Assembly: GCA_049366815.1 (NCBI GenBank)
Contig: JBMNCO010000132.1
Location: 8,891 to 72,890 of the forward strand
Length of the DNA: 64,000 bases
Reading direction: 5' to 3'
Origin: Desulfatiglandales bacterium
GTDB lineage: Bacteria; Desulfobacterota; DSM-4660; Desulfatiglandales; HGW-15
Part shown: one piece after another, positions 13,558-57,464 of the stretch
How the letters are laid out: each line of letters begins with the position of its first letter
Numbering within the stretch: position 1 is the first letter of the stretch
Program-made: the position numbers and the translations under genes
The notes under the pieces: model-generated
The model's database searches: none
What the model saw: the letters and a program-made list of their open reading frames with translations, nothing else
What the model was told of the DNA's origin: nothing

Positions 13558-13564
13558 GGTCATT

Positions 13565-39598: not shown

Positions 39599-39683
39599 GC
39601 TGACATCGTAGTATGCCGGGGGTACACCTTCAAGGACCCCCGGCCCGTGTCAGTGATACGGCATGAACAGATAGGAGGGCAAA

Positions 39684-40760: not shown

Positions 40761-40772
40761 GGAGGCTGGACA

Positions 40773-41285
40773 ATGGAGGAACGCAGTTTACTGAATGGCA
40801 AAAAGATCCTAGCTGTGGACGATGAGCCGGATATTCTTGAATTCCTTGAAGAACACTTGAACATGTGTCAGATCGTGAAGGCTGCCAGCTTCACGGATGC
40901 AAAGAATTTACTGGAATCTCAGGATTTCGATGCGGCCATTCTGGATATCATGGGCGTTAACGGCTACGAACTTCTCGAAATTGCGAACAGGAGGAAGATT
41001 CCCTGCCTCATGTTGACGGCCCATGCCTTCAGTCCGGACAACATCGTGCGATCCATCAAGGAGGGCGCAGCGTCTTACGTGCCCAAGGAGGAGATAGCGA
41101 AGGTCGAAGCTTTTCTGAATGACATATTTCTCGCACAGGAAAAGGGCGAAAATCCCTGGGTGTCATGGCAGGAACGACTCCCCGGTTCTTATTTCAGAAT
41201 GAGGTTTGGTGCGGCCTGGGATGCAGCGGACGATCAATTCCGGAATGCCCTTAAGGATGTCCTTCGATCCAGATCGAAGACCTAG
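40773..41285 (+). CDS. Stand-alone response-regulator receiver domain protein with ~50-aa C-terminal extension
   Basis: All receiver catalytic positions are present: acidic pair VDDEPD, phospho-acceptor AAILDIMG, LMLTAH (Thr) and SYVPKE (Lys). There is no output domain. RBS AAGGAGG. Starts 12 nt after the beta-like gene stop. Confidence 0.85.
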   Translation: MEERSLLNGKKILAVDDEPDILEFLEEHLNMCQIVKAASFTDAKNLLESQDFDAAILDIMGVNGYELLEIANRRKIPCLMLTAHAFSPDNIVRSIKEGAASYVPKEEIAKVEAFLNDIFLAQEKGENPWVSWQERLPGSYFRMRFGAAWDAADDQFRNALKDVLRSRSKT

Positions 41286-43097: not shown

Positions 43098-43241
43098 CGG
43101 CCTGTGGTGGTCCCATGCGCTTCATAAAACGAGAGGCACTGGAATATTTAATCAACACGAGTGTTACAAAGGCGTCACACGGCAGTCTTTTCAGTCTCAC
43201 GGTCATTACTAACCCAACACCTTAGAGGAGGAAGAAAAGAA

Positions 43242-45092
43242 ATGGCGAAAAAATTTACAGACCCCCACGATATCCCAACCATCCCCGGCACCGAAGGATG
43301 GGAAAGGATGTACCCCTACCAGTATATCTTCTCCACGGACGATCCCGACAGGGCGAAACACGAAAGTGCCCAGTTGTGGTACAACGACGGGCTCCACTAC
43401 CCGGACCCCCACTGTCCCTTTGATCTCCTTTGGGATGAATTCTGGTTCATGGGCCTGTCCCAGAACAACACCCGGGTCTTCTGTCTGCCCCCGGCCAAGG
43501 GCATCGAACACAGGATCGTCAACGGGTACGTCTATATCGCGCCCATCGGCGTCGAAGACCCCAAGGAGATCGAGGCCCGTGTTCCCCTTTTTATGAAAAG
43601 GGCCGGATACTACTATGACAACTGGGAAACCCTCTGGGACGAGTGGGAGGCGAAGTTCAACGTCCTCCTGAGGCAGCTCGAGGCCGTCTCATTCCAGGCC
43701 CTTCCGGAAGTGGAGGATGAATCGCGTGTTTTCGATGCAGACAAAAGGGGGCTCTCAAGCGGCTATGTGCTCCTGACCAAATACGACGAGCTCATCAACA
43801 TGGGCTTCAAGTGCTGGCAATATCACTTTGATATGCTGAACCTCTGCTACGCGGGTTTTCTCACCTACAAGAATACCTTTGACCAGATCTTCCCGAACAC
43901 CCCGATCGGCACCATCACAAAGCTTGTCTCGGGTATGGATGCCATGGTCATGAGACCGGACGCGGAACTCATCAAGCTGGCAAAAATGGCCATAGATAAA
44001 GGTGTTGACGGCATACTCCTCAAGGACCAGGATGCAGCCGCCTGCATGAAGGAAATGGAGGGTTCGGCCGCGGGTAAGGAATGGTTGGCCCAGCTGGAAG
44101 AATCCCGGTATCCCTGGTTCTATATCTCAAGCGGTACAGGCTGGTACCATTATGACGCCTCATGGAACGACAACCTGAACATCCCCTTTGCTTCCCTAAA
44201 GAAGCATATCGAGTCCCTGAAGGCGGGCAAGGACCCCTCACGGCCCATGGAAAAACTGGTCGCGGAAAAGGACAGGGTCACCGAGGAATACCGTTCCCTG
44301 ATCCAGACCGACGAGGACCGGGTTGCCTTTGATCAGACCCTTTCGATTGCCCGCCGCATCTTCCCCTATGCCGAGAACCACATGTTCTATGTCGAACAGT
44401 GGTTCCACAGTGTCTTCTGGAACAAGATGCGCCAGGTCGCGGACATCCTCAAGGATGCCAATTTTATTGAAGACCGGGAAGATATATGGTATTTGAAGAG
44501 GGGAGAGATCCGAGACGCCCTGCAGGATTACGGCACGGCCTGGGCCACCGGTGTGAAACCGAGGGGACCTGCTTACTGGCCGAAGGAGATCGAATGGCGC
44601 AAAGGGGTCATGCAGAAATTCAAGGAATGGACCCCGCCTCCGGCCCTGGGGACACCTCCTGAGGTCATGACCGAACCCTTCTCGATCATGAGCTGGGGCA
44701 TTACGGACGAAGTCCTCCAAAACTGGCTCGCAGCCGGCGATGTTTCAGGAGAGGAAGGACCTTCCGATGAATTGAAGGGCTCTCCCGGCGCCCCGGGTGT
44801 TGCAGAAGGCAAGGCCAGGATTATTAAGTCGGTTGATGAGCTGGCCCTGTTGCAGCAGGGAGAGATCCTTGTCGCCAGGATCACGGCCCCAAGCTGGGCA
44901 CCGGCCTTCGCTCAGCTCAAGGGAGCCGTTACGGACGTGGGTGGCTCCATGTGTCACGCGGCCATCATCTGTCGCGAATACGCCCTGCCCACGGTCGTGG
45001 GAACAGGGACTGCCACTTCCGCTATTAAGACGGGGGATCTGATCCGCATAGACGGTGATACCGGTACGGTAAAGATTCTTCAAAGGGCCTAA
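43242..45092 (+). CDS. Phenylphosphate-synthase alpha-like subunit, paralog 2 (diverged)
   Basis: Collinear with 37742..39598 (EGWE.MYP, TRVFC.PPA.G..HR, KCWQYHF, WF(Y/F)(I/V)S.G.GWYH, SWAPAF..LKGAVTD.GG). The phosphohistidine loop reads GGSMCHAAIICREYALP instead of GGLTSHAAIVSREYGLP. RBS GAGGAGGA. Confidence 0.8.
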   Translation: MAKKFTDPHDIPTIPGTEGWERMYPYQYIFSTDDPDRAKHESAQLWYNDGLHYPDPHCPFDLLWDEFWFMGLSQNNTRVFCLPPAKGIEHRIVNGYVYIAPIGVEDPKEIEARVPLFMKRAGYYYDNWETLWDEWEAKFNVLLRQLEAVSFQALPEVEDESRVFDADKRGLSSGYVLLTKYDELINMGFKCWQYHFDMLNLCYAGFLTYKNTFDQIFPNTPIGTITKLVSGMDAMVMRPDAELIKLAKMAIDKGVDGILLKDQDAAACMKEMEGSAAGKEWLAQLEESRYPWFYISSGTGWYHYDASWNDNLNIPFASLKKHIESLKAGKDPSRPMEKLVAEKDRVTEEYRSLIQTDEDRVAFDQTLSIARRIFPYAENHMFYVEQWFHSVFWNKMRQVADILKDANFIEDREDIWYLKRGEIRDALQDYGTAWATGVKPRGPAYWPKEIEWRKGVMQKFKEWTPPPALGTPPEVMTEPFSIMSWGITDEVLQNWLAAGDVSGEEGPSDELKGSPGAPGVAEGKARIIKSVDELALLQQGEILVARITAPSWAPAFAQLKGAVTDVGGSMCHAAIICREYALPTVVGTGTATSAIKTGDLIRIDGDTGTVKILQRA

Positions 45093-45293
45093 ACGCATAG
45101 GCACGATAGACTTAGGGTAAATCGTGTGGTTCCAGCCGGAAATGGACCCGGCATCCGCCTCAAACTTGGCAACTCGCGGCGGGAGGGTCCATCTCCGGCA
45201 TATTACATAACAGGGCTGGATCAAAAAAAGACAGTCCGCTTCAACGTGTGCACACTGTGTGCACCGTATATTTTGTTCTATTTGGGGGTAGAC

Positions 45294-46364
45294 ATGGTTG
45301 AAAAAGAAAAACGCATAACCATTTGGTATGATGAATTGTCGGGGGACGAATTCAATCTGGTCGGGAAAAAAAACGCGAATTTGGGCGAGATGACCAAGGC
45401 CAAGATTCCGGTAAGTCCAGGGTTCGCCCTCACGATTTACGCAAATGATCTTTTTGTGACGGAAACGGGCATCAAGGACAAACTGAGAGAGTGCGTCAAA
45501 GGCATCGAGAAATTCGACTACGAAAACAGCCGCAGGGCAAGTGAATTTGCCGTTGACCTCATCGAAAACACGCCCATTCCCGCCAGCATCACCGATCAAA
45601 TCTTTCAGGACTACAAGAGGCTCTGCGGCATGTCCGGTTGCGAGAATGTGCCGGTTGCCACGCGTTCAAGCGGCGCGGTATCCATGCCGGGACAGATGGA
45701 GACCTACCTGAATGTACGGGGGGAAGAGGACCTTCTCAAATACATCAAGAAGACCTGGGCCAGCGCCTACTTTGTAGAGGCCATCACCTACCGCATGGAA
45801 AAAGGCATGCACTTCATCCTCAATATCGGGGTGGGCGTTCCCAAAATGGTCAATTCCAGGGTATCGGGCATCATTTTTACGATGAACCCGCTGAACGGCG
45901 ACCGCTCCAAGATCTCGGTGGATGTCAGTTACGGGCTCGGTGAGGCCGTTGTGAGCGGCCTGGTCACTCCGGACAACTACCTGGTGGACAAGGTTACTCT
46001 TGAGACCATCACCGCCACCAAGGGTGAAAAGAAGATCAAGATGGTCTACAGAGAAGACGGCAGCACGATCAAAGAGGTCGAAGTTTCCGAGGAAGAGCGG
46101 AACAAGTTCAGCATCACCCAAGAAGAACTCAGTGAGATCTGCAGGATCGCCAAGTCCATTGACAAATACTACGGCAAACCCTATGACATCGAATTTGCTA
46201 TTGATGGAGACCTGCCTTTCCCGCAAAACGTCATCGTTCTTCAGGTAAGGCCCGAATCCGTATGGTCCAAAAAGCAGGCTGAAGCAAAGACCGAACCAAA
46301 GAGGGACGTGATGGACAGGATCCTCGGCACCATGGTGGCCGGCGTCAAGTTGAAGAAGTCGTAA
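45294..46364 (+). CDS. Phenylphosphate-synthase beta-like ATP-grasp subunit, paralog 2
   Basis: VGKKNANLGEMTKAKIPVSPGFAL, TRSSGAVSMPGQMETYLNV and YDIEFAI are collinear with 39684..40760. ATG 45294 follows GGGGG; the track start at 45126 is rejected. Confidence 0.8.
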   Translation: MVEKEKRITIWYDELSGDEFNLVGKKNANLGEMTKAKIPVSPGFALTIYANDLFVTETGIKDKLRECVKGIEKFDYENSRRASEFAVDLIENTPIPASITDQIFQDYKRLCGMSGCENVPVATRSSGAVSMPGQMETYLNVRGEEDLLKYIKKTWASAYFVEAITYRMEKGMHFILNIGVGVPKMVNSRVSGIIFTMNPLNGDRSKISVDVSYGLGEAVVSGLVTPDNYLVDKVTLETITATKGEKKIKMVYREDGSTIKEVEVSEEERNKFSITQEELSEICRIAKSIDKYYGKPYDIEFAIDGDLPFPQNVIVLQVRPESVWSKKQAEAKTEPKRDVMDRILGTMVAGVKLKKS

Positions 46365-46451: not shown

Positions 46452-47663
46452 ATGGGAACTCAGGGAATTATCGCAATTCTTGGGACGTTTGACTCCAAAC
46501 CGGAGGAACATCTTTTTCTTAAAAGAAACATCGAGGACAGGGGACTCAAGACACTGACAATAAACGTGGGGACTCGATGTCCAGCGGCCTTTGCGCCGGA
46601 CATCGACCTCCACGAAAAGCTCACGGAGGAAGACCGAAGGAGCCGAGACGCCGCTATTCAGGCCACCGTTGACAGGGGTCGGAAGCTGGTCAGGGATTTG
46701 TACGACCGGGGTGAAATCTCGGGCATCATTTCGGCCGGGGGCGGGACAGGGACACATCTCGGTACGAGCATCATGCACGTCCTCCCGCTCGGCGTGCCGA
46801 AGGTCATGGTCTCCACTGTGGCCTCCAGAAACATGGCCAAGGTGGTGGGGACCAAAGACATCACCATGATGCACAGCGTGGTCGATCTCCTTGGCATCAA
46901 CAGCATTTCCGGAGGCGTGCTCGAAAGGGCCGCGGGGGCTGTCTGCGGCATGGCGCAGAACAGGTGGAGGCCCGATACCACCAGAAGGCGTGTTGCACTC
47001 ACCTTTTTCGGTTTCATCACAGCGGCCGCCGAGGCCGTGAAGGAATGCCTGGAAGGCATGGACTACGAGGTCATCCCGTTTCACGCAAATGGGACGGGCG
47101 GTATGGCTATGGAGGAATTGGCGGCCGAGGGTTATTTTCACGCCATCCTGGACCTCGCCACCCATGAACTCGCCGACGAGATGATGGGCGGTTACTGCCG
47201 CGGTATCGGTCCCGAGAGGCTGAGACCGCTGACGAACGGCCACATCCCCCGCCTCGTCGTCCCGGGAGGGCTCGATTGCGCGGTCCTCGAATTTACCCGT
47301 CAAAACATTCCCGAGGAATTCAGGGACAGAAAGCTTTTCTTTTACGATTTCAGATCGGCCATCCGTCTCACACTTGAAGAAACCCTCACCCTTGCGGAAC
47401 AACTTGTTGAGAAGCTGAAAATTCACCCAACCCACACCAAGGTCCTTGTCCCTGTTCAGGGCTGGTCTGAAGCCGATCGGAAGGGCGGTCCTCTCTATGA
47501 TCCCCCAATCAGTGAGGCCCTCGTCAAGGTACTCAGGACTGCATTGCACCCGAGAATCGAGGTACGGGAGGCGGACCTCCATATCAATGACCCGGCCTTT
47601 GCCCGTGCGGCCGGCATGTTAATGGACGAGATGGTCAAAGAAGCGATGGGCAGCTCCCAATAA
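46452..47663 (+). CDS. UPF0261 family protein (Tm-1-like ATP-binding domain)
   Basis: IAILGTFDSKPEEHLFLK, ISAGGGTGTHLGT, LGVPKVMVSTVAS and IPFHANGTGGMAMEEL are, as I recall, characteristic of the UPF0261/Tm-1 N-terminal family. The usual TIM-barrel PEP-hydrolase-like partner gene is not adjacent. Confidence 0.7.
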   Translation: MGTQGIIAILGTFDSKPEEHLFLKRNIEDRGLKTLTINVGTRCPAAFAPDIDLHEKLTEEDRRSRDAAIQATVDRGRKLVRDLYDRGEISGIISAGGGTGTHLGTSIMHVLPLGVPKVMVSTVASRNMAKVVGTKDITMMHSVVDLLGINSISGGVLERAAGAVCGMAQNRWRPDTTRRRVALTFFGFITAAAEAVKECLEGMDYEVIPFHANGTGGMAMEELAAEGYFHAILDLATHELADEMMGGYCRGIGPERLRPLTNGHIPRLVVPGGLDCAVLEFTRQNIPEEFRDRKLFFYDFRSAIRLTLEETLTLAEQLVEKLKIHPTHTKVLVPVQGWSEADRKGGPLYDPPISEALVKVLRTALHPRIEVREADLHINDPAFARAAGMLMDEMVKEAMGSSQ

Positions 47664-47698: not shown

Positions 47699-48631
47699 TC
47701 ACCTCACACGCCCTCGATACCCCATCCCCTCAAAGGGGATACTCTCTCCAGCCAATTTCTGCAGAATACGCAAAAAGGCCTGAGCCGCGGGTGAAAGGGG
47801 CACCTCCCGGTGATAGGAGATGCTGACCTCCAACCCTACCTCTTCCCCTTTCAGGGACAAGGCGATTATTTTCCCCTCCTGCACCTCTTTTCGCACCGCC
47901 TCCTTGACCAGAAAGGCGACCCCGCCCCCACTCCCCACGATCTGCTTGATGAAACCCGCGTTGCTGGTCTCCATCAGTATTCTGGGCGTGATATTGTTGC
48001 GTGCGAACAGTTCGTCCACCACACCCCGTGTTGATGATCCGACTTCCCGCATAATGAGCGGCTCATCCATCAGATCTTCAAGGGTAACGATCTTATTTTC
48101 TGCAAGCCGGTGATTTTTCGGAACAATAACCAACAATGGCTCTTTGCGGAATGGGATGGAAATGATCTTGGGATCCTTCACGTTATGGGCCACGATTGCC
48201 AGATCAATATCAAGATTGAACAGGCTTCGCATCACTTCCGCTGAACTCCCCTGATACAGACACACCTTGATCTTGGGATAGGCGTAATGAAACGTGCTGA
48301 TCAGAAAGGACATACGGTATCGCGCATACATGGTACTCGTTCCAATACGGAGGGTGCCGCATTTCAAGCCCTTCATATCCTCGATCACCCCTTCGATCTC
48401 CTTTTCGAGGTCGAACAGCTTTTTCACATGGAGGTATAAGGACTTGCCTTCTTCGGTGAGTTCTATATGCCTTCCCTTTTTTTTGAACAGTTTCAGATCG
48501 CATGCATCTTCAAGAAACTTTATCTGGGCGGTCACGGCCGGCTGGGTAACCATGAGTTCCTGAGCAGCCACGGTAATACTCTTATTTCTGCCAACATGAT
48601 AGAATACCCTGAGTTGGTTGAGGTTCAACAT
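47699..48631 (-). CDS. LysR-family transcriptional regulator (paralog 1)
   Basis: N-terminal wHTH MLNLNQLRVFYHVGRNKSITVAAQELMVTQPAVTAQIKFLE plus a LysR substrate-binding domain. Divergent from the UbiD cluster. Confidence 0.9.
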   Translation of the reverse strand: MLNLNQLRVFYHVGRNKSITVAAQELMVTQPAVTAQIKFLEDACDLKLFKKKGRHIELTEEGKSLYLHVKKLFDLEKEIEGVIEDMKGLKCGTLRIGTSTMYARYRMSFLISTFHYAYPKIKVCLYQGSSAEVMRSLFNLDIDLAIVAHNVKDPKIISIPFRKEPLLVIVPKNHRLAENKIVTLEDLMDEPLIMREVGSSTRGVVDELFARNNITPRILMETSNAGFIKQIVGSGGGVAFLVKEAVRKEVQEGKIIALSLKGEEVGLEVSISYHREVPLSPAAQAFLRILQKLAGESIPFEGMGYRGRVR

Positions 48632-48910
48632 CGCGTCTCACCCTCCCGCATGCAAAGCGTTTCCTTTCTAAAAAAGCCCACTTGTCACTATCTGTTGTTA
48701 TAGCTCGGCCATATTTTACGGTCCCATGAGCGGTTTCGGCCGCTGTATCCACTGTCCTTTTGACCCCCGCACCATAAAAGCGAGACTGCGGGTCTGTCTC
48801 CACAACGTATCCCGTCCTGGAAGGATTTTTATGTATACCCCATTTTATCGGCAATAAAAAATATTTTTTATAGCTCTCTTGATTATTAAGATATTATTAT
48901 AATTTGTGCT

Positions 48911-49081
48911 CATCCGGAAATGAGCATTCCCGGATTCGCGCTAACAGCTATCAGCGATCAGCCATCAGCGATCAGCGATCAGCTATCAGCAAAAGCTATG
49001 CAAAGACAAGGCATTAGGCTGAGCGCTGAATGCCGATAGCAGACCGCTCCATCCAGAAATCATTTATTTCTGGATGGAAAC
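48911..49081. repeat. Intergenic repeat family A, copy 3 (expanded heptamer tract)
   Basis: Has the same termini as copy 1, but the TCAGCNA tract is expanded to six units (TCAGCGA TCAGCCA TCAGCGA TCAGCGA TCAGCTA TCAGCAA). The 12-bp 3' hairpin is CCATCCAGAAAT/ATTTCTGGATGG. Confidence 0.85.
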
Positions 49082-49571
49082 TAATTTAGGCATGATCTTC
49101 AGGGCCTTTTACCTGGAGCGATTTCCCTTTGGCCGAAGACGACGGGGGAGTTCTCATGAAGGATTCCTGAATTTTCATTATCGATGAGGTCACAGCAGTG
49201 TCTGGACCCGGCTGGACAGGTCAGGGAAAGCACCTCAACACACAGAGAGAGACATGGCGTGGACCGGCGCACTGGATTTCAGATGTGTGGAGCAAAATCG
49301 AAAAAAGGATAGTACGTCTATAGCGTTGGAACTTGCCAACAGACAAAAAGTAGAATACGAAGAAGAAACATGGAAATGGCCTCGATGATAACATAATCTT
49401 ATCCTGCTTCCAAATGCATAATAATATGTTATGAGTCACATAAGAATAATGAAATTGACAAGCATGGACCGGATAGGTCATCCTGAAGCGCGTTCCATAA
49501 TATTACAAGTGGGATGAAAGGCCTCTTTTTTACCTACCGACGACAAAACCTTGGACACATGGAATCTGTCG

Positions 49572-49599
49572 TTGACAACACAATAAAACGCTTTATACT
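49572..49599 (+). promoter_or_regulatory. Candidate sigma-70 promoter for the UbiD/HAD carboxylase operon
   Basis: TTGACA (49572-77), a 16-nt spacer, then TATACT (49594-99), about 175 nt upstream of ATG 49773. Motif match only. Confidence 0.4.
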
Positions 49600-49772
49600 T
49601 TTCGTTTTTGACGCTTGAAGTTTTTGTTTTGTGCTCTTAGTTTCCCGTAATTCCCGATTCTCCAGGGCGGGCCTGTAACAGGCCCACTTTTCGATCGTAA
49701 ACCTGGAGGCCGGGATTCATCGTGACATTCTAGAATTCTAAACCGTTTATCCTTTTAAGGGAGGTATCTCCA

Positions 49773-51191
49773 ATGAAAGATCTAAGAGATTATGTCGCCA
49801 AGGCTGAAGAGATAGGTCAGCTCCGCCGGGTAAAGGCTGAAGTGGACTGGGATCTCGAACTTTCACACATCTGCAAAGTCACTGAAGAAAAGAGTGGGCC
49901 CGCCCTTCTTTTTGAGAACGTGAAGGGGTATTCTAGCCCCGTCCTGACGGGTGCATTCGGCACGACCGAGAGATTGGCCCTCATCCTCGGAGCGGATCCC
50001 AAGCTCTCCATGGTCGGACTGACAAAAGAGTGGGTGAACGCCTCTGTCAAGGATCTCATCCCGGCCCAAGAGGTCAAAGACGGCCCCATCTTTGAAAATG
50101 TGGTCGAGGCTGATAAGGTGGACACCTTTGCCTTTCCTTCACCAAGGTTTTACGAACTGGACGGCGGGCGCTACTTCGGTACCGCTGTGTTCATGGCCAT
50201 CCAGGACCCTGACACGGGTAAGGTCAACCTCGGCACCTACCGCATGGGTATCCTGGATGACAAAACCGTGGGTGTCCAGATCCTCAGAGGAAAGACGGCC
50301 GATAGGATCCTGCAGAAATGGGGAAAGAAGGGCAAAAAGATGCCCGCATGCGCGATCATAGGCGGTGACCCCCTGCATATCTTTGCCGGGGCCGCTACCG
50401 TGCCCAATGCCAAGAGCGGATACGACGTGGTGGGATCTCTTCGCGGCGCCCCGGTTGAAATTGTGAAGTCCCAACTGAGTGGCCTGCCCATTCCGGCCGC
50501 GGCAGAAATCGTGCTGGAAGGTGAGATCGACGCCGAGCAGCTGAGAGAAGAGGGACCCTTCGGCGAATACACCGGCTACTACACGGAAGAGTTGATCAAG
50601 CCGATTCCCAAGCCCGCGCTCGAAGTCAAACGCGTCTACTATCGAAACAACCCCATCCTGTGGGAGACGAGTGTCGGCAGGCCCGTAGGCGACCAGCACA
50701 TGCTCTATGCCTTTGTGCGAAACGCCAGCCTGTGGTCGGAACTGACCAGGTGGAATATGCCCGGCATCAAGTCCGTGTACACCATGCCGGAGGCGTCCGG
50801 CCGCTTCTGGGTCATCGTCTCCGTACAGCAGATGTATCCCGGTCACGCCGATCAGATAGCCGCGGCGGTCATCGCAAGCAATACGGGAACTTACGGAATC
50901 AAGGGCATCATTCTTGTTGACGACGACATCGACGCGGACGATCTGCCAAGGGTATGGTGGGCGCTCGGCACCCGATACAACCCGGACCGCGGCACACAGA
51001 TTATCAAAAGAGGAAGGTCCACCCCGCTCGATCCGGCCCTCGGTGCGGACGAGAACAAGTTCATCACCTCACGCATCATCCTGGATGCGACCATACCTTT
51101 CGATTGGAAGATCAAGCCCACGGAAATCAAGCTTACGGAAAGCGTCATGGAAAAGGTGAAGGCCAGGTGGGCCGAATACGGCATAGACTAA
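49773..51191 (+). CDS. UbiD-family (de)carboxylase, phenylphosphate-carboxylase alpha/beta-like, paralog 1
   Basis: 472 aa. MKDLRDYV..IGQLRRVKAEVDWDLELS..GPALLFENVKGY and FGEYTGYYT are the UbiD family hallmarks. RBS GGGAGG. Confidence 0.85.
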   Translation: MKDLRDYVAKAEEIGQLRRVKAEVDWDLELSHICKVTEEKSGPALLFENVKGYSSPVLTGAFGTTERLALILGADPKLSMVGLTKEWVNASVKDLIPAQEVKDGPIFENVVEADKVDTFAFPSPRFYELDGGRYFGTAVFMAIQDPDTGKVNLGTYRMGILDDKTVGVQILRGKTADRILQKWGKKGKKMPACAIIGGDPLHIFAGAATVPNAKSGYDVVGSLRGAPVEIVKSQLSGLPIPAAAEIVLEGEIDAEQLREEGPFGEYTGYYTEELIKPIPKPALEVKRVYYRNNPILWETSVGRPVGDQHMLYAFVRNASLWSELTRWNMPGIKSVYTMPEASGRFWVIVSVQQMYPGHADQIAAAVIASNTGTYGIKGIILVDDDIDADDLPRVWWALGTRYNPDRGTQIIKRGRSTPLDPALGADENKFITSRIILDATIPFDWKIKPTEIKLTESVMEKVKARWAEYGID

Positions 51192-51204
51192 TAAGGAGGT
51201 CAGT

Positions 51205-51762
51205 ATGGGCTTCGATAAGGATATAAAAGACGCACAGGAAAGGGCCAAAAAGCTCAAACTTTTTGCCCATGACGTTCATGGGATACTTACCCAGAACAAT
51301 TTTTATTGTGACATCGAGGGACGTCGCAGATATGGCTTCTGGCATATGGACGGCTTCGGGGACCTCTCCCTGGTGGCCAATAAGATCCAAGTTGCCTTTT
51401 TGGACAGCACATCTGTGGACGAAGAGGGCCTGTTCCGGGCCAAGGAGTTGAAACTTGACAAGTTCTACTACAAAGTCACGAATAAGCTGGCCAAGCTGGA
51501 GGAACTCAAAAAGGAACTGGATATAGCCGATGAGAACATCGGTTATATGGGGTGCGAAGTCACGGATCTCCCGGCCATGAAGCGAGTCGGTTTCGCTGTG
51601 GCCACGGCGGACGCCATTGATGATGTCAAGGAGGTCGCACATTATATTACCACGGCCCCCGGAGGAAGAGGGGCCATGCGTGAGATCTGCGAATTCATTC
51701 TCAGGGCCATGGGACAATGGGAAACCTGGGTCGATATGGTCACCAAGAAGGGTTACAAGTAG
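51205..51762 (+). CDS. KdsC-like HAD-superfamily protein (phenylphosphate carboxylase delta-like), copy 1, with altered catalytic motifs
   Basis: Collinear with KdsC-type phosphatases. Motif I reads DVHG rather than DxDG. Motif IV reads GCEVTD rather than GDDxxD. The GGRGA(M/V)RE tail is retained. Confidence 0.75.
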   Translation: MGFDKDIKDAQERAKKLKLFAHDVHGILTQNNFYCDIEGRRRYGFWHMDGFGDLSLVANKIQVAFLDSTSVDEEGLFRAKELKLDKFYYKVTNKLAKLEELKKELDIADENIGYMGCEVTDLPAMKRVGFAVATADAIDDVKEVAHYITTAPGGRGAMREICEFILRAMGQWETWVDMVTKKGYK

Positions 51763-51784
51763 CCGTTAAAGGAGGGGTGACATA

Positions 51785-52324
51785 ATGGTAAGTATGGAAA
51801 ATGCAATAGAAAAGGCAAAGCAAGTCAAGTTCGTCATCCTGGACATCCATGGGATCCTCACGGATAACACGCTTTATTATACGGATGAGGGGACGAAGTC
51901 GGAGTGTTTCTCCCTGGCGGATCGGCTGGGGTGTATGGCCCTGATGGAAGCGGGAATCGGCGTGTCCTTCCTGACCACCAAAATTTCCCGGGCGGATCAA
52001 CAGGTCGGAAAGGTCTATACGGTCCCTGATGACAAGCTCTGGGGCACAGGCGCCAAGATGGGTAGGCTCGACGAATTTGAAAAGGAATCGGGTTACCAGG
52101 ATCACGACTTCTGCTATGTTGGTGATGAGATGATCGACCTCGGCATCATGAAGCGGGTCGGTTTTGCCGTTGCGCCGGCCGACGGCGCGACAGAGGCCAA
52201 GGGTGTCGCCGATTTGATCACAAAGGCCAACGGCGGCAAGGGAGTCGTCAGAGAAACTGCGGAATTCATTCTCAAGGCCCAGGGAAAGTGGGATTCAGTG
52301 ATACAAACACTGACGCAGTCATAG
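51785..52324 (+). CDS. KdsC-like HAD-superfamily protein (phenylphosphate carboxylase delta-like), copy 2
   Basis: FVILDIHGILTDN (motif I is again D-x-H), YVGDEMIDLGIMKRVGFAVAPADG and GGKGVVRE. RBS AAAGGAGGGG. Confidence 0.75.
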   Translation: MVSMENAIEKAKQVKFVILDIHGILTDNTLYYTDEGTKSECFSLADRLGCMALMEAGIGVSFLTTKISRADQQVGKVYTVPDDKLWGTGAKMGRLDEFEKESGYQDHDFCYVGDEMIDLGIMKRVGFAVAPADGATEAKGVADLITKANGGKGVVRETAEFILKAQGKWDSVIQTLTQS

Positions 52325-52538
52325 TGAAGTCCAAAAGCGGATAAGGAGGGTTGATACAGGAACCCTTTTCATGCTCCGGCCTGTAATAATCTATTTGAAA
52401 AAAAAGAGTGAACGCTTTCAGGTGCGCAACGGAAGAGAGCGCCGGGACAACCGGCGCATCTCCCAGCCGAGAGGATCGTACCGGTGTGGGAGTCAGATTC
52501 TCCGGATGCCTACCGTTTATATCAAAAAGGAGGTTTAG

Positions 52539-53984
52539 ATGTCCTACTCATGTCCTAAAGACAACAGAGAATTTATCAAACTATTGGAAAAATCCGGGGA
52601 CCTGGTCACGATTGAGCAGGAAGTGGATTGGGATCTCGAGTTAGGAGCGATTGTGCGAAGGGTTTGCGAGTTGAACCTGCATACCCCCTACTTCAAAAAA
52701 ATTAAGGATTACCCTGGATTCGAGGCCCTTGGTGCACCTCTGGCCACCTACCGAAGGCTCGCCCTGGCCATGGGCATGGACGGCGAGTCCACCATTCCGC
52801 AGATTGCCGACGAATATGTCAGACGCACCACTTCCGATAAGGGCATCCCGCCGGTTATCCTGGACAAAAAGGATGCGCCCTGTAAAGAGAACATTCTTCT
52901 TGGGGATGACGCGAATCTGATGAACATTATGGGACCCATGGTTCACGACGGGGACGGGGGAAGATACCTGTGTACATGGCATTTTGTGGTGGCGCAGGAT
53001 CCGGACGACAAGCACATCAACTGGGGGATGTATCGACAAATGGTCTTTGACGAAAAGACCATGGTCGGCCCCGTCCTCCCCTTCTCAGACATGGGAAAGA
53101 TGTTCTACGGAAAGCACGTTCCCAGGAACGAGCCCATGCCTTTTGCCACGGTCATCGGTATTGATCCCCTCTCAGGCGTGGCGGCCAGTGCGCCCGCTTC
53201 CATTCCGGAAGATTTATTCGCCGGCATGTTGAGGGGCGAACCCATGGAACTGGTCAAATGCGAAACCTGCGATCTCCAGGTGCCTGCCCACGCTGAGGTC
53301 ATTATCGAGGGCGAGGTCATCCCGAACATCATGATCGAAGAGGCCCCCTTTGGGGAATATACGGGGTACCGCACCTCTCCGAGGGAACCGAGGACGGTCT
53401 ATCGCGTCAAGGCCATCACCCACAGAAACAACCCCATCATCACCGTTTCCAACATGGGCGTACCCACCGATGAGGGGCAACTTCTGAGGTCCTTTTCCCT
53501 GGGTCTCGAAATGCGTAGGCTTTTGGAAAGCCAGGGCATTCCCATAACAGGGGTCTTCATGCTTCCCGAGTCGACCCACCACCTGGTCGTGGTCGGCGTG
53601 AAACCCGCCTACAGTGGTATCGCTCAGCAGATCGCCGGTCTGATCTACGGCAGCAAACTGAGTCCATGGTTCCACATGACCATCGTAGTGGATGATGAGA
53701 CGGACATCTACAGCAAGGAAGAAGTCATCCACGCCCTGTCCACAAAATGTCATCCGATCCGAGGGATTCATAAGTACGACAACGCACCCGGAACCCCGCT
53801 CAATCCTTATGCCTCTCCCGAGGAGCGCAAGATGAGCTTCGGGGCGAAGGTCCTTTTCGACTGCACCTTCCCTCTGAATTGGCCCAAATCCGACCTGCCC
53901 ATTAAGGTCGCATTCAACACCGTATATCCCGAGCACATCCAGGAAAAGGTCCTGGCAAACTGGACGAGCTACGGTTTCAAATAA
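52539..53984 (+). CDS. UbiD-family (de)carboxylase, phenylphosphate-carboxylase alpha/beta-like, paralog 2
   Basis: 481 aa. GDLVTIEQEVDWDLELGAI and FGEYTGYRTS. RBS AAAGGAGG. Confidence 0.85.
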   Translation: MSYSCPKDNREFIKLLEKSGDLVTIEQEVDWDLELGAIVRRVCELNLHTPYFKKIKDYPGFEALGAPLATYRRLALAMGMDGESTIPQIADEYVRRTTSDKGIPPVILDKKDAPCKENILLGDDANLMNIMGPMVHDGDGGRYLCTWHFVVAQDPDDKHINWGMYRQMVFDEKTMVGPVLPFSDMGKMFYGKHVPRNEPMPFATVIGIDPLSGVAASAPASIPEDLFAGMLRGEPMELVKCETCDLQVPAHAEVIIEGEVIPNIMIEEAPFGEYTGYRTSPREPRTVYRVKAITHRNNPIITVSNMGVPTDEGQLLRSFSLGLEMRRLLESQGIPITGVFMLPESTHHLVVVGVKPAYSGIAQQIAGLIYGSKLSPWFHMTIVVDDETDIYSKEEVIHALSTKCHPIRGIHKYDNAPGTPLNPYASPEERKMSFGAKVLFDCTFPLNWPKSDLPIKVAFNTVYPEHIQEKVLANWTSYGFK

Positions 53985-54000
53985 ACAGGAGGAAAAATCC

Positions 54001-54273
54001 ATGGCAAGAAAAGAATATGATACCTACGTGTTAGTCGATCCTGCGACGGTCCCCGAGGATCAGGAGATGGAAGTTATCCTCCGGGATCTGAACCCTGAGG
54101 ACAGACGACACAAATATCGAAGCTTCTTCGCGAAAGTCAAGATCTCCAAGTCCGACAGCAAGTACCCGAATTTGCTCCAGGTCAGACTTGGCCGAGGCCA
54201 GCTTCAGGAAAAACGTTGGTCCGTCGAGGTTCTGCAGGTAGTGGATAAATTCGCGCAGGGAGCAGCTGCATGA
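54001..54273 (+). CDS. Small (90 aa) protein, candidate phenylphosphate-carboxylase gamma-like subunit
   Basis: Its ~10 kDa size and its position between UbiD paralogs match the small gamma subunit reported for the Thauera enzyme. RBS AGGAGGAA. The stop overlaps the next gene's start. No motif is recognisable. Confidence 0.5.
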   Translation: MARKEYDTYVLVDPATVPEDQEMEVILRDLNPEDRRHKYRSFFAKVKISKSDSKYPNLLQVRLGRGQLQEKRWSVEVLQVVDKFAQGAAA

Positions 54274-55637
54274 GAGACGTGCGCGGTCTCAAGGAGTTTG
54301 TCCAGATACTGGAGGGCCAGGGAGAACTTCAGCGGATTAAGGAGCCCCTGGACCCCCGGTATGAGATTTCCAGTGTCCTGTCGGAGATTGGCCGAAGGGA
54401 GGGCCCTGCCCTCCTTTTCGAATCCGTCAAGGGGTGCAGTACGCCCCTTGTCGGCAATCTCCTGGGAACCAATAAGCGTATTGCCTTGGCGCTGGGAGTC
54501 CAGGAGGAGGATATTCGAGAGGGTCGACTCCCAAACATGGAAAGGAGAATCCCCCCGGTCCTCCTGGGTAAAAAATCCGAGAGAGAGCTTATAAGCTCGA
54601 AAAAGGACATCGATCTTCGGAGAATCATCCCGGCCCTGACCTATTATATCAAGGATTCCGGCCCCTACATCACTGCCGGGATCACCTCTGCCCGGGATCC
54701 CAGGGACGGGACCATGGGAAGGGGCCTGCATCGCATGGAAATGCGGGGCGAAAGTGAAATCGGTATTTCTCTGATCAATCCGCCTCTTTCAGATATCTAT
54801 GCCTATCACCGGGGACAAGGCACCCGAATGGAAGTGGCCACCGCACTCGGTGTCGATCCTTCCATCCTCTTTGCCACCATACAAAACATACCCCGTGGAA
54901 CCGATAAATTCGCCTTCGCCGGAGGGCTCATGGGTGAGGCGATCGCAACGAAAAAGGCCGAGACCGTGGACGTGGAGGTCCCTGCCTACGCCGAGATCAT
55001 CATTGAAGGGATTATTGATCCCCGAGGTGAAGAAAATGACGGCACGCTTGGTGAGGCGAGCGGCTACTATATGGCGTTTTCAAGCAGTCCCACCATCCAT
55101 GTGACTGCCGTCAGTTACCGAAAAAATCCTTGTTTTCAGGCCATCCTGCCCTGGAGTCTCGAAGTTGATCATCTTGTCTCCCTATTCCACGGGCTGGATT
55201 TCATTCCCAAGATGAAGAGGGATGTCCCCAATATCCTGGATGTCCACTTCGTACCGGGTACCTTCGGCTCTCACGTGGTCTTTTCCATTGACTCTGAAAA
55301 CAAGGCGGATATCCGGAGGGCATTGACCCTGGCCCTCACCTTTACACGTACTAAAAAGGCGACGGCGGTCGACGCGGATGTCAACCCCCGGGATCATCTG
55401 GAGGTCGAATGGGCCATGGCCACGAGGTTTCAGGCCGACAGGGATCTCATCGTGATCCCGTCACTCCGTGGGCAGCCGATCGATCCCTCCACCGGACCGG
55501 GGTTCGCAACGTCGAAGGTGGGAATTGATGCCACTAAGCCGAATAAAGAAGCCTTTGAGAAGGTGGATTTCCCTGAGGACGTAAAAGATCGAATGTCCTC
55601 GCTGATCGCTGATATTGTGAAAGAGGGATGGAAATGA
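54270..55637 (+). CDS. UbiD-family (de)carboxylase, paralog 3 (more UbiD-like, coupled to UbiX)
   Basis: 455 aa. GELQRIKEPLDPRYEISSV..GPALLFESVKG and LGEASGYYM. Overlaps the UbiX gene start by 10 nt. Confidence 0.85.
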   Translation: MRDVRGLKEFVQILEGQGELQRIKEPLDPRYEISSVLSEIGRREGPALLFESVKGCSTPLVGNLLGTNKRIALALGVQEEDIREGRLPNMERRIPPVLLGKKSERELISSKKDIDLRRIIPALTYYIKDSGPYITAGITSARDPRDGTMGRGLHRMEMRGESEIGISLINPPLSDIYAYHRGQGTRMEVATALGVDPSILFATIQNIPRGTDKFAFAGGLMGEAIATKKAETVDVEVPAYAEIIIEGIIDPRGEENDGTLGEASGYYMAFSSSPTIHVTAVSYRKNPCFQAILPWSLEVDHLVSLFHGLDFIPKMKRDVPNILDVHFVPGTFGSHVVFSIDSENKADIRRALTLALTFTRTKKATAVDADVNPRDHLEVEWAMATRFQADRDLIVIPSLRGQPIDPSTGPGFATSKVGIDATKPNKEAFEKVDFPEDVKDRMSSLIADIVKEGWK

Positions 55638-56284
55638 AAAGACTGGTTGTGGGCATTTCAGGTGCGACCGGCGCGATTTACGGTATCCGGCTCCTTGAGG
55701 TTTTGTCTCAATTGGACATTGAGAGCCATGTAGTCATTTCGGAGGCTGCGATCAGGACGATCCACATGGAAACCCCTTGGACGATAGAGGGGGTCAAGGC
55801 CCTGGCCCATACCTGGTATGACATACGGGACGTTGGGGCGGATATTGCGAGTGGATCCTTCATTTGCGAGGGCATGGTCGTGATCCCGTGCGCTATCAAG
55901 ACCCTGTCCGGAATCGCCCATTCCTACAATGACAATCTCCTGCTCCGTGCCGCTGACGTGGCCTTGAAGGAAAAACGCAAGCTGGTTGTCGTTGTCAGGG
56001 AGACACCTCTGCATAAAGGCCACTTGAGCCTCATGTTGACCCTGGCGGATCTCGGTGCCACGATCCTTCCCCCCATCCCCGCCTTCTACTCACTCCCCAA
56101 GACGATTGATGATCTCATCAATCATTTGGTAGGCAAGGTCCTGGACATGTTCCACATCGAGCACCAGCTGTTCGCCCGGTGGGGCAGCGACAAACTGAAA
56201 AGCACGGTCACCGAAAAAGAGAAATCAAAATGCGCGGGGGTGACCGATCCCGCAACAGACCCCGGCAACAGAGGAAAGCTTTAA
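55628..56284 (+). CDS. ubiX: UbiX-family flavin prenyltransferase (prFMN synthase)
   Basis: KRLVVGISGATGAIYGIRLLEVL, MVVIPCAIKTLSGIAHS and VVRETPLH are the canonical UbiX/Pad1 motifs. Confidence 0.9.
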   Translation: MEMKRLVVGISGATGAIYGIRLLEVLSQLDIESHVVISEAAIRTIHMETPWTIEGVKALAHTWYDIRDVGADIASGSFICEGMVVIPCAIKTLSGIAHSYNDNLLLRAADVALKEKRKLVVVVRETPLHKGHLSLMLTLADLGATILPPIPAFYSLPKTIDDLINHLVGKVLDMFHIEHQLFARWGSDKLKSTVTEKEKSKCAGVTDPATDPGNRGKL

Positions 56285-56288
56285 GGTA

Positions 56289-57230
56289 TCAAGATATTCT
56301 CTCTTTGGAGATAAGGGACTGGATACCCCTGATAGGTCCCTTTTCTGCAATTAATTGTTCCAGGATCGCGAGAAAGGCCTTTGCAGAGGGTGAGAGGGGT
56401 TGATTTTTTAAATAGGCAATGTTGACCCCCAGGGTCATGGACTCCCCAAGGATCGGGCGGGTGACGAGTTTTTTCTGCTCGAGTTCTGCAACAACGGATC
56501 CCTTGACCAAAAAAGATATCCCATCCCCACGTTCAACAACCTGCATGATAAATTCAGCGTTGGAGGTTTCCATCAGGATTCTTGGTGACCTGTCGTGGCG
56601 TTTGAACAGGTCGTCGACCAACTTCCTTGTTACGGACCCGACTTCCTTCATGATAATAGGCTGTTGGGCGATCTCTTCGAATGTTACGACCTCTCTTTGG
56701 GCCAAAGGGTGATCCGGTGGAAAGAGCGGAATCAATTCTTCCTCACTGAAGGGGATGAATTCCACATCGGGTTCTTCTATGACCTTGGCAATAAGGGCCA
56801 CCTCATTCTTTAGATCACAAATACTCTTGATCATTGCAGCGGAACTGCCCTCGTCCAGATGAATCTCAATGTGACAATACTTTTCATGAAATTTACGCAC
56901 GAGACCGGGCATGATGTAACGGGCGTAGCTTTTGCTCGTGCCCAGGCGTAGCACCCCCCGCTTTAACGCCCTCAAATCTTCTATGACGTTTTCGACCTCC
57001 TTCTCCTGTTCAAAAATGGGTCGGATATAGTTGAAAATGGTCCTACCCTCGTCCGTCATCCGAATACCCCTGCCCCGTTTTTTGAACAGATTGAGGTCAC
57101 AATATTCCCCGAAGGCCTTGACCTGTGCTGTGACGGCCGGCTGGCTGATAAGAAGTTCCTTTGCCGCTGACGTGAAACTGAGGTTTTTGGCAACGTGATA
57201 AAAGACCCTGACTTGGTTCAGATTCAACAT
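56289..57230 (-). CDS. LysR-family transcriptional regulator (paralog 2)
   Basis: MLNLNQVRVFYHVAKNLSFTSAAKELLISQPAVTAQVKAF is a clear paralog of 47699..48631. ATG 57230 is preceded by GGAGGA; the track start at 57359 is rejected. Confidence 0.9.
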   Translation of the reverse strand: MLNLNQVRVFYHVAKNLSFTSAAKELLISQPAVTAQVKAFGEYCDLNLFKKRGRGIRMTDEGRTIFNYIRPIFEQEKEVENVIEDLRALKRGVLRLGTSKSYARYIMPGLVRKFHEKYCHIEIHLDEGSSAAMIKSICDLKNEVALIAKVIEEPDVEFIPFSEEELIPLFPPDHPLAQREVVTFEEIAQQPIIMKEVGSVTRKLVDDLFKRHDRSPRILMETSNAEFIMQVVERGDGISFLVKGSVVAELEQKKLVTRPILGESMTLGVNIAYLKNQPLSPSAKAFLAILEQLIAEKGPIRGIQSLISKERIS

Positions 57231-57464
57231 ATGATCCTCCGTCACCCGACATCGAGCATCCGGCTTGTCTTGGAGTCCCCTGTACGCCACGAGGGATTCT
57301 AATCCACCTTTATCAAAAGAGATTTCTGCAGAAAGGAATGGATTGGGGTCTGGAGTCAACCCGTCTCCCTTATCTGTAAATCTCTACAGATCCATAAAAA
57401 TCCCTGATAAATACCATAAGAAAAATAAAGTTGACATCTCTTTTTCTTTAAACAAAATCTCACT

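Follow-up and report, generated by a model that had tools for sequence, protein, structure and literature searches.

The seven plus-strand genes at positions 49773-56284 of the window (the 64,000-nucleotide stretch of a Desulfatiglandales MAG analysed here) are an intact copy of the phenol-carboxylating operon common in strictly anaerobic bacteria. From sequence comparison, and with a probability of roughly 0.6, we read them as one conserved operon that would encode the phenylphosphate carboxylase of Desulfobacterota and Syntrophorhabdia that are strict anaerobes, together with its cofactor module, in which two delta paralogues, δ1 and δ2, would form an obligate heteromer and a third UbiD paralogue, PpcX, would have an accessory role.

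The seven open reading frames lie exactly where the original prediction had placed them, and its parts list (PpcB, two delta-like proteins, PpcA, gamma, a third UbiD and UbiX) was confirmed by coordinates and profile scores. Chance matches can be dismissed because the E-values of the profile matches for the seven genes span 1e-15 to 1e-211. PpcB, a UbiD-family beta subunit of 472 aa (49773-51191) with three UbiD Pfam domains, scores 644 bits against the TIGR02724 (phenyl_P_beta) cut-off of 469, and PpcA, the UbiD-family alpha subunit of 481 aa (52539-53984), 703 bits against the TIGR02723 (phenyl_P_alpha) cut-off of 565. Between them are the genes of two KdsC-type HAD proteins, δ1 (ppcC1-type, 185 aa, 51205-51762) and δ2 (ppcC2-type, 179 aa, 51785-52324). 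The gamma mini-protein of 90 aa (54001-54273) is recognized by PF09662 (Phenyl_P_gamma; 55.7 bits, cut-off 25) and falls below the NCBIfam cut-off (TIGR02725; 55 bits versus 135). It is followed by PpcX (455 aa, 54270-55637), matched by the generic TIGR00148 only, and by PpcY, a UbiX-family flavin prenyltransferase (218 aa, 55628-56284; NF004685, 258 bits versus a cut-off of 188).

The gamma-PpcX and PpcX-UbiX junctions are both ATGA overlaps. The original prediction had the third UbiD translationally coupled to UbiX by a 10-nt overlap, but an overlap of 4 nt is more likely, with UbiX starting at the ATG at 55634, since a GAGGG ribosome-binding site lies 6 nt upstream of this codon and the modal value of the overlap in relatives is -4 nt. 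A plus-strand promoter-like site (TTGACA-16-TATACT, 49572-49599) agreeing with 11 of 12 consensus positions lies about 170 nt 5' of PpcB; it is a consensus match only, and shuffles of the region yield at least as many such sites in total.

Among the 80 species-level genomes gathered with PpcA, the commonest gene order was PpcB-δ1-δ2-PpcA-γ-UbiD-UbiX. The identical seven-gene order was found in 28 loci that are complete and in further, partial ones; the δ1-δ2 pair is carried by 43 non-redundant loci in total, and a single-delta version of the cluster by 31. Loci with the order of the window include the operon of Syntrophorhabdus aromaticivorans UI (PMC5946492), which has PpsB, UPF0261 and LysR genes upstream and a PpsB2-type gene as the only synthase gene within the fetched flank. 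Desulfosarcina variabilis and D. cetonica have PpcA in two copies, and the gene order around their δ1-δ2 pair differs. The phenol cluster of D. variabilis str. Montpellier (CP159846) reads ppcC1-ppcC2-PpcA1-PpcA2-PpcD-ppcX-PpcY; it shares both delta paralogues with the window, as well as the relative order of gamma, PpcX and UbiX, but has two PpcA-type genes and a PpcB-like gene apart on the other strand, whereas in the window there is one PpcA and PpcB comes first. Flavin-supply genes follow UbiX in D. variabilis; in relatives, those found 3' of UbiX are a CTP-dependent riboflavin kinase gene and an FMN_dh-type gene. The same relatives also encode the prFMN chaperone LpdD, on the 5' side of the ppc genes and following UPF0261; LpdD is present in the locus of a Syntrophorhabdus sp. 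MAG, but was missing when looked for in the window.

The phenylphosphate carboxylase of Thauera aromatica, as reportedly described by Schühle and Fuchs in 2004, is an alpha-beta-gamma-delta enzyme with UbiD-like and UbiX-like (ORF8) genes downstream. The likening of the cluster to this enzyme in the original prediction was correct: the window likewise encodes two UbiD-type large subunits above the NCBIfam alpha and beta equivalog cut-offs, a small gamma, KdsC-type HAD delta proteins and a downstream UbiD-like/UbiX-like pair. The Thauera-type order, beta-delta-alpha-gamma-X-Y, is seen in proteobacterial loci (L077-L081). Thauera has one delta with a canonical DVDG motif I, and proteobacterial relatives score at the delta equivalog cut-off (TIGR02726, 282 bits), whereas the window has two deltas, both with D-x-H-G in motif I (DVHG in δ1, DIHG in δ2) and both far below that cut-off (118 and 126 bits, respectively).

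Judged by their identity of just 38%, δ1 and δ2 are ancient paralogues and not products of a recent tandem duplication; the two tandem delta-like genes are therefore real, but not as recent duplicates. They are 68 and 74% identical, respectively, to ppcC1 and ppcC2 of D. variabilis, and mean identity is 73% within the δ1 clade, 70% within the δ2 clade and 37% between them. In the tree, δ1 and δ2 each form a clade with 100% bootstrap, all Ppc-linked HADs stand apart from KdsC at 92%, and the sister grouping of δ1 and δ2 has a bootstrap of only 33%. The pair is also fixed in its arrangement: δ1 comes first and on the same strand as δ2 in all 43 non-redundant two-delta loci, with a gap within 200 nt in 40 of them, and δ1 never occurs without δ2, while δ2 alone is found only at contig edges (L037, L045). 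Both genes are under strong purifying selection, their dN/dS values (δ1, 0.057; δ2, 0.051) being similar to that of PpcA (0.034).

KdsC, the 3-deoxy-D-manno-octulosonate 8-phosphate phosphatase, is a cap-less (C0) HAD tetramer, and in tetramers of this type the flap and tail cap the active site of the neighbouring subunit. Solved KdsC structures match both deltas over their full length (E-values down to 1e-27), and the nucleophile Asp, the flap insert and the Lys of motif III are common to KdsC and the deltas. The deltas differ from KdsC in having His in place of the Asp+2 general acid and in their genomic context, which is aromatic catabolism rather than lipopolysaccharide synthesis. In addition, motifs II and IV are degenerate in δ1, where Asp replaces the motif II Thr and motif IV reads GCE, its first Asp being lost; these two residues are kept in δ2 (motif IV GDEMID) and in all single deltas. 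δ1 could nevertheless retain activity, because its nucleophile Asp is still present, as are the Lys of motif III and Glu and Asp in motif IV.

The losses in the two paralogues are complementary. When the 88 columns conserved in single deltas were scored, 40 were kept in both proteins, 15 in δ1 only (including H47, G50 and F51 of the flap and K178, V179 and G183 of the tail) and 15 in δ2 only (including T64 and K66 of motif II, and D114 of motif IV with its neighbours). Together with the fixed co-occurrence, this pattern points to partners in one complex rather than interchangeable subunits. The delta component would be an obligate δ1/δ2 heteromer derived by complementary loss from an ancestral KdsC-like homo-oligomer, δ2, the keeper of the catalytic motifs, performing phosphoryl transfer and δ1 contributing the ancestral flap and C-terminal tail.

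The original prediction had instead suggested that δ1 and δ2 could be alternative subunits with which the PpcA/PpcB core builds two assemblies, one for the activated substrate of each synthase pair. Two such pairs, phenylphosphate-synthase-like, do lie upstream on the plus strand, as predicted, and the phospho-histidine motif is intact in the alpha subunit of each. PpsA1/PpsB1 (37709-40760; NF006153, 810 bits versus a cut-off of 578; motif GGLTSHAAI) is followed by a receiver-domain protein, the whole spanning 37709-41285; PpsA2/PpsB2 (43161-46364; NF006152, 857 bits versus 723; motif GGSMCHAAI) has PEP-utilizers and PPDK_N domains. The pairs are intact and share just 40% identity, the flap region, a possible determinant of substrate specificity, is strongly divergent between δ1 and δ2, and related enzymes of D. 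anilini serve both phenol and aniline (PMC7500099). However, within 10 kb the 43 other two-delta loci have a single synthase pair (19 loci) or none at all (24 loci), and never two, so the delta pair is not linked to the synthase pair; with the invariable co-occurrence and order of the deltas, the loss from δ1 of residues kept by all single deltas, and losses that are complementary and not parallel, alternative subunits are unsupported and seem to us quite improbable.

Degenerate motifs under strong purifying selection could also mean that δ1 is a regulatory or gating pseudo-phosphatase, which would, for example, block wasteful hydrolysis of phenylphosphate by δ2 or sense substrate. Going by genome titles, the two-delta form is confined to strict anaerobes, for which energy is scarce, and phenylphosphate is hydrolysed, if slowly, by the Thauera delta on its own (PMC6114531, background section). 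We regard such a role as very doubtful: δ1 has no separate regulatory domain, and the proposal overlaps largely with the heteromer model, as gating also needs binding.

As to the large subunits, the original prediction held that the need of the UbiD paralogues for prFMN could not be decided from sequence, and proposed an inspection of the prFMN- and metal-binding residues. This inspection, in Fdc1 numbering (Mn ligands N168, H191 and E233; catalytic R173, E277 and E282; ligand identities from PMC4947166 and PMC8379154), answers the question in part: the site is nearly complete in PpcA, incomplete in PpcB and non-canonical in PpcX. All 77 PpcA orthologues have N168, R173, E233, E277 and E282, and the H191 position of PpcA is an acidic Asp in the broader alignment. 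PpcB keeps N168, R173, E277 and E282, but its Mn ligand E233 is replaced by Gly, where Thauera has Gln. PpcA is therefore likely to be the catalytic subunit, its canonical prFMN/Mn site holding prFMN made by UbiX (PpcY). To our knowledge, prFMN dependence has never been directly shown for phenylphosphate carboxylase. For a related carboxylase with two UbiD proteins, the work on aniline in D. anilini reported FMN to be enough (PMC7500099).

PpcX has none of the three ligands: N168 is Gly (Gly or Ala across orthologues), and all 59 orthologues have Pro at H191 and Lys at E233. As all three are lost in every orthologue, PpcX is probably not a conventional decarboxylase; for comparison, in a diverse set of 124 UbiD representatives, about 110 keep N168 and E233. 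The PpcX orthologues have R173 and E282 without exception, and 57 of the 59 have an acidic residue at 277; PpcX may therefore still act catalytically, binding its cofactor without a metal. The closest solved structure is 6h6v/6h6x (E-value 1e-74, aligned residues 6-437), which we take to be HmfF, the 2,5-furandicarboxylate decarboxylase of Pelotomaculum thermopropionicum; its gene too is paired with a UbiX-type gene, but its Mn site is N, H, E where PpcX has G, P, K.

The residues at 173, 277 and 282, the UbiD-family decarboxylase as nearest structure and the resemblance of the gene pair to known decarboxylase and prenyltransferase pairs would all suit PpcX and PpcY as a separate prFMN-dependent reversible 4-hydroxybenzoate decarboxylase or phenol carboxylase, independent of the Ppc complex, and exactly such a role has been speculated upon (PMC5946492). 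The lost ligands weaken this possibility, which the original prediction had raised, and the gene for PpcX is under the weakest constraint in the operon (dN/dS 0.11). Moreover, PpcX and UbiX follow gamma in most complete clusters, two-delta and single-delta alike, and this position, with the ATGA overlap here, suggests a role tied to the Ppc complex. We consider a separate enzyme unlikely, although less so than the alternatives for δ1 and δ2. PpcX would rather be a conserved UbiD paralogue in an accessory role, its translation coupled to that of gamma and UbiX and its site unfit for the usual Mn-prFMN binding, with a function more likely in cofactor handling than as a second conventional decarboxylase. 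Nor is the pair peculiar to this cluster, since it is found in both cluster types and already named: PpcX and PpcY in print for S. aromaticivorans (PMC5946492), and ppcC1, ppcC2, ppcX and PpcY in the deposited D. variabilis record.

A UPF0261 gene (46452-47663, plus strand) is conserved next to Pps genes in relatives, and LysR genes lie beside most related clusters; the window has two on the minus strand, one convergent with the operon (56289-57359; HTH_1 and LysR_substrate domains) and another divergent from it (47699-48631), 48% identical to the first. The plus-strand gene at 41997-43097 encodes a conserved hydrophobic Trp-rich protein that had no family match in Pfam and NCBIfam; at no fewer than 10 loci, proteins encoded next to Pps/Ppc genes are 62-69% identical to it, and it probably belongs to the same island as a membrane protein. 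D. anilini, of the same order-level lineage, has PpsA/B-type synthases, UbiD-type carboxylase subunits and a ubiX-like gene in its phenol cluster, but in that organism alpha, beta and delta are encoded at scattered sites and gamma was not found (PMC6114531, PMC7500099), whereas in the window all parts are contiguous, gamma among them.

Phosphorylation of phenol by PpsA/PpsB followed by carboxylation is established in Thauera aromatica. By analogy, the substrate here would be phenol or another phenolic compound: a PpsA/PpsB synthase would phosphorylate phenol or a close analogue, the phosphoryl group would then pass to the HAD-type delta component, and the UbiD-type core of PpcA, PpcB and gamma would carboxylate the phenolate in para position to 4-hydroxybenzoate. 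The duplicated small subunit and the third UbiD with its UbiX are standard parts of this operon and no sign of a second enzyme. The layout of the cluster is not unusual, and the Desulfatiglandales locus adds to a known cluster type.

Seven tightly spaced ORFs are found on the forward strand between positions 49773 and 56284, and their assignment with Pfam and NCBIfam bears out the parts list of the original prediction. The first encodes PpcB (49773-51191; 472 aa), a UbiD-family protein matching the phenylphosphate carboxylase (Ppc) beta subunit with 644 bits (TIGR02724, cut-off 469), and the fourth PpcA (52539-53984; 481 aa), which matches the alpha subunit with 703 bits (TIGR02723, cut-off 565). 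Between them lie the genes of two adjacent KdsC-type HAD proteins, δ1 (51205-51762; 185 aa) and δ2 (51785-52324; 179 aa). PpcA is followed by the gamma subunit of the ~10 kDa class (54001-54273; 90 aa), which is recognized by Pfam PF09662 (Phenyl_P_gamma; 55.7 bits, cut-off 25) but missed by the narrower NCBIfam equivalog TIGR02725 (55 versus 135 bits). The last two genes code for a third UbiD paralogue, PpcX (54270-55637; 455 aa), assigned to the generic UbiD family (TIGR00148; 286 bits, cut-off 245), and for the flavin prenyltransferase UbiX, or PpcY (55628-56284; 218 aa; NF004685, 258 versus 188 bits; TIGR00421, 233 versus 109 bits). All three UbiD paralogues, which share 26-33% identity, carry the UbiD_N, UbiD and UbiD_C domains. 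The matches of alpha, beta and gamma (gamma through Pfam) mark this as a phenylphosphate carboxylase operon in function, as judged from family membership, and two pairs of phenylphosphate-synthase-like genes (ppsA/ppsB) lie upstream in the window. The predicted reaction, with the substrate assigned by homology, is the conversion of phenylphosphate and CO2 into 4-hydroxybenzoate and phosphate.

The delta proteins fit the existing models less well. TIGR02726, the equivalog for the single ~18 kDa HAD delta subunit, is the best match of both δ1 (118 bits) and δ2 (126 bits), and neither reaches its cut-off of 282. Only proteobacterial deltas do so, the one of locus L080 with 282 bits, whereas deltas of Bacillota and Actinomycetota score 131-164. 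The model is thus tuned to Proteobacteria.

The gamma and PpcX genes overlap by an ATGA. Coupling of PpcX to UbiX had been proposed on the basis of a 10-nt overlap; an overlap does exist, but its length of 10 nt stems from using the upstream ATG at 55628. The junction is most likely also an ATGA overlap with the UbiX start at 55634, since a GAGGG ribosome-binding site lies 6 nt upstream of this ATG and since -4 occurs more often than any other overlap among relatives, where spacings are approximate because ORF starts are first-start calls. The remaining junctions are 13-22 nt long, apart from a non-coding spacer of 214 nt between δ2 and PpcA (52325-52538), which in relatives varies from 17 to 165 nt. 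No structured RNA was detected in this spacer or in the rest of the 36-60 kb region, for which Rfam returned one sub-threshold chance match. Upstream of PpcB lies a 1.1-kb intergenic region of low GC content (48632-49772; 0.465), which contains the best promoter-like match around the operon (11/12) at 49572-49599; a GC-rich hairpin (49669-49685) is located downstream of it, inside the presumed leader.

The two Pps pairs (pair 1, 37709-40760, subfamily NF006153; pair 2, 43161-46364, NF006152) are 40% identical, keep the phospho-histidine motif in both alpha subunits and may act on different substrates. They are accompanied by a receiver-domain protein (40773-41285), a UPF0261 protein (46452-47663) and two LysR regulators on the reverse strand (47699-48631 and 56289-57359). 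A highly hydrophobic Trp-rich protein of 366 aa (41997-43097), which has no Pfam or NCBIfam match, has counterparts of 62-69% identity adjoining Pps/Ppc genes in 10 or more of the related loci; it may belong to the phenol island as a membrane component, for example an uptake protein. Further upstream, a molybdenum hydroxylase with three subunits (11188-16304), of the 4-hydroxybenzoyl-CoA reductase type, fits a route from phenol through 4-hydroxybenzoate to benzoyl-CoA. Besides a 2Fe-2S subunit (~13563-14065) and a MoCo subunit (14046-16304), it has an FAD subunit of 789 aa (11188-13557) with an insertion of ~400 aa (Pyr_redox_2 and a Fer4_20 4Fe-4S domain) between FAD_binding_5 and CO_deh_flav_C, an arrangement suggestive of an integrated electron module linked to NAD(P)H or ferredoxin. 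The window also holds an ORF of 1766 aa (19238-24538) in which UvrA-like ABC ATPase domains and UvrA interaction/DNA-binding domains are duplicated, and which has roughly double the length of a normal UvrA.

To place the operon among its relatives, we scanned the PpcA alignment against one genome per species, obtaining 80 loci (59-83% identity), called the ORFs in each and matched them to the window proteins. The order PpcB-δ1-δ2-PpcA-gamma-UbiD-UbiX recurs in 28 complete loci and in partial ones, and both deltas are present in 43 non-redundant loci. Their hosts include Syntrophorhabdus aromaticivorans UI and many MAGs of Syntrophorhabdales, Syntrophaceae, Desulfobacterales and Thermodesulfobacteriota. 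A single delta occupies the same position in 31 loci from Alpha- and Gammaproteobacteria, Dethiobacter, Syntrophomonadaceae, Actinomycetota and Deferrisomatales. Desulfosarcina variabilis and D. cetonica differ in having the order δ1-δ2-PpcA-PpcA-gamma-PpcX-UbiX. Two tandem PpcA-type genes stand there where PpcB would sit (L002 10562-13508 in D. variabilis; L042 in D. cetonica), and a PpcB-like gene is found at another place, on the other strand. In the D. variabilis record as deposited, the genes are called ppcC1, ppcC2, PpcA1, PpcA2, PpcD, ppcX and PpcY. PpcX and PpcY have already been described for syntrophs and nitrate reducers, PpcY being the counterpart of ORF8 of Thauera aromatica (PMC5946492), so that, together with the D. 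variabilis gene names, all elements of the cluster have previously been seen and named. As the PpcX and UbiX genes follow gamma in both the two-delta and the single-delta types, they are a standard part of ppc clusters. The operon is an uncultured Desulfatiglandales example of a cluster type that is both known and widespread. None of the texts retrieved in our literature search discussed the two delta genes, prior recognition of which was confined to the deposited D. variabilis names.

The original prediction gave, as one example of how two carboxylase assemblies could arise alongside the two synthase pairs, the use of the two deltas as alternative subunits. The comparative data do not support it: within 10 kb of the 43 other two-delta loci, two Pps pairs were found in none, one pair in 19 and no pair in 24, so the delta pair does not track the synthase pair and a tie between the two is ruled out. 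The genomic association is instead between the deltas themselves. δ1 precedes δ2 on one strand in 43/43 loci, at an approximate distance of <=200 nt in 40 of them and across larger gaps in three; δ2 without δ1 occurs only where a contig ends. A recent tandem duplication is ruled out by the identity of only 38% between δ1 and δ2 and by the separate deep orthologue family of each, with 65-84% identity across orders. In a distance-based neighbour-joining tree rooted on KdsC structures, the monophyly of δ1 and that of δ2 each receive 100% bootstrap, and the Ppc-linked HADs, including δ1 and δ2 of the window, are split from KdsC at 92%; a sister relationship of δ1 and δ2 receives 33%, and the tree gives no branching order among δ1, δ2 and the single deltas. 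Both paralogues are strongly constrained, as indicated by dN/dS ratios over 11 genome pairs of 0.057 for δ1 and 0.051 for δ2 (PpcA, 0.034; PpcB, 0.038). Decay of δ1 into a pseudogene is ruled out by this ratio, which is on a par with that of δ2.

Complementary losses in the HAD motifs also speak against interchangeable deltas. Motif I, DxDG in KdsC, is DxHG in both δ1 (DVHG) and δ2 (DIHG), as in 25/30 single deltas; the nucleophile Asp is present, and the general acid of the KdsC-type DxD, Asp+2, is replaced by His. Among single deltas, DVDG occurs only in five loci of the Proteobacteria type (L077-L081). The motif III Lys is shared by KdsC, single deltas, δ1 and δ2. In motif II, the Ser/Thr of KdsC is Thr in single deltas and δ2, and Asp in δ1. 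In motif IV, GDD in KdsC and GDE or GDD in single deltas, δ2 has GDE and δ1 has GCE or GSE (GDEMID and GCEVTD in the window). Thus, δ2 has both the motif II Ser/Thr and the acidic pair of motif IV, and δ1 has neither. Single deltas conserve 88 alignment columns, and both paralogues retain 40 of these. A further 15 are retained by δ1 alone, concentrated in the flap that separates motif I from motif II (H47, G50, F51) and in the tail at the C terminus (K178, V179, G183); another 15 are retained by δ2 alone, concentrated in motif II (T64, K66) and motif IV (C110, V112, D114, I117, G120). HAD tetramers of the cap-less KdsC type have each active site closed by the flap and tail of the neighbouring subunit. 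If a homo-oligomer had turned into an obligate hetero-oligomer, complementary losses of this kind, one paralogue losing the catalytic half and the other the capping half, would be expected, and this is the reading of δ1 and δ2 that we prefer: δ2 would carry out phosphoryl transfer, and δ1 would act as a cap or gate on δ2. The interpretation of the two as a split catalytic/capping pair is a prediction and may be novel.

The cofactor sites were compared in an alignment of 77 PpcA, 70 PpcB and 59 PpcX sequences with E. coli UbiD, the 6h6v protein and a reference that we take to be Aspergillus niger Fdc1; its numbering reproduces N168, R173, H191, E233, E277 and E282, and its columns are consistent with those of E. 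coli UbiD and 6h6v, whose sequences were taken from PDB alignments. N168, H191 and E233 are ligands of the Mn2+ by which the phosphate of the cofactor is held (PMC4947166), and R173, E277 and E282 are catalytic residues (PMC4947166, PMC8379154). The original prediction held that dependence on prFMN could not be decided from the sequence, which is too pessimistic; inspection of these positions, as it had advised, separates the three paralogues (N,D,E at the ligand positions of the window PpcA versus N,T,G in PpcB and G,P,K in PpcX). PpcA keeps N168, E233 and all three catalytic residues invariant, with Asp at H191, and may be read as the canonical cofactor-binding catalytic subunit. PpcB keeps N168, and at least 69/70 sequences keep R173, E277 and E282, but position 191 is Thr in the window and Arg or Lys in most orthologues, and position 233 is Gly in 33/38 two-delta loci, Gln in Proteobacteria and Glu in Bacillota and Actinomycetota. 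The latter position tracks cluster type among the orthologues (L006-L085), with Gly/Ala in 35/38 two-delta and Glu/Gln in 29/31 single-delta loci. The metal site of PpcB looks compromised.

PpcX has lost the entire ligand set: position 168 is mostly Gly or Ala, 191 is Pro and 233 is Lys in 59/59 sequences each. Its R173 and E282 are invariant and position 277 is Asp or Glu, so that the window residues read R,D,E compared with R,E,E in PpcA and PpcB. Since N168 and E233 are both kept in ~110/124 diverse UbiD representatives, PpcX is a clear outlier. These representatives came from a PpcA search of 50%-cluster representatives, whose ten top-scoring full-length matches fell short of the alpha cut-off and proved to be UbiD relatives other than Ppc, and were used solely to show how conserved the ligands are across the family. 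PpcX therefore seems unable to bind Mn-prFMN in the known manner, and its invariant Lys may substitute for the metal. PpcX may conceivably act as the separate reversible decarboxylase that had been proposed, but this idea is weakened by the replacement of all three Mn ligands. Recognition that PpcX is predicted to have no Mn site may also be novel.

UbiX is read here as the supplier of prFMN. In relatives, genes for flavin supply are linked to ppcX/ppcY. Downstream of UbiX they carry genes for an FMN_dh-type protein, a HAD hydrolase and a CTP-dependent riboflavin kinase (L002 15747-18625; L004 15105-15479), none of which was found downstream of UbiX in the window. Upstream of the ppc genes, an LpdD-type prFMN chaperone gene (PF21758) follows UPF0261 in L004 (7057-7470) and in a Syntrophorhabdus sp. 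MAG (L005 3594-4010); tblastn found no counterpart in the window. O2-dependent systems are known to mature prFMN oxidatively. A sequence search of the PDB returned no solved Ppc structure.

As a more speculative reading, to which we give a probability of about 15%, PpcX might bind prFMN or a precursor of it without a metal, the invariant Lys replacing Mn2+ at the cofactor phosphate. The product of the translationally coupled UbiX would pass to PpcX, to be matured there or handed on to PpcA without oxygen. Likewise, δ1 and δ2 would represent a homo-oligomeric HAD enzyme divided into catalytic and capping subunits.

In anaerobic phenol breakdown, the key step of CO2 fixation is that of phenylphosphate carboxylase. 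The biochemically studied one-delta form of the Thauera type, for which our statements follow what PMC6114531 and PMC7500099 give as background, is a minority in the genome sample, and the two-delta form predominates in syntrophs and sulfate reducers. For the genome scan, the main yield here is correct annotation; for enzymology, the sequence patterns provide the predictions that PpcA has the sole canonical prFMN site, that catalytic and capping functions are split between the deltas and that PpcX has no Mn ligands. The cluster marks out this Desulfatiglandales organism as a probable anaerobic phenol degrader.
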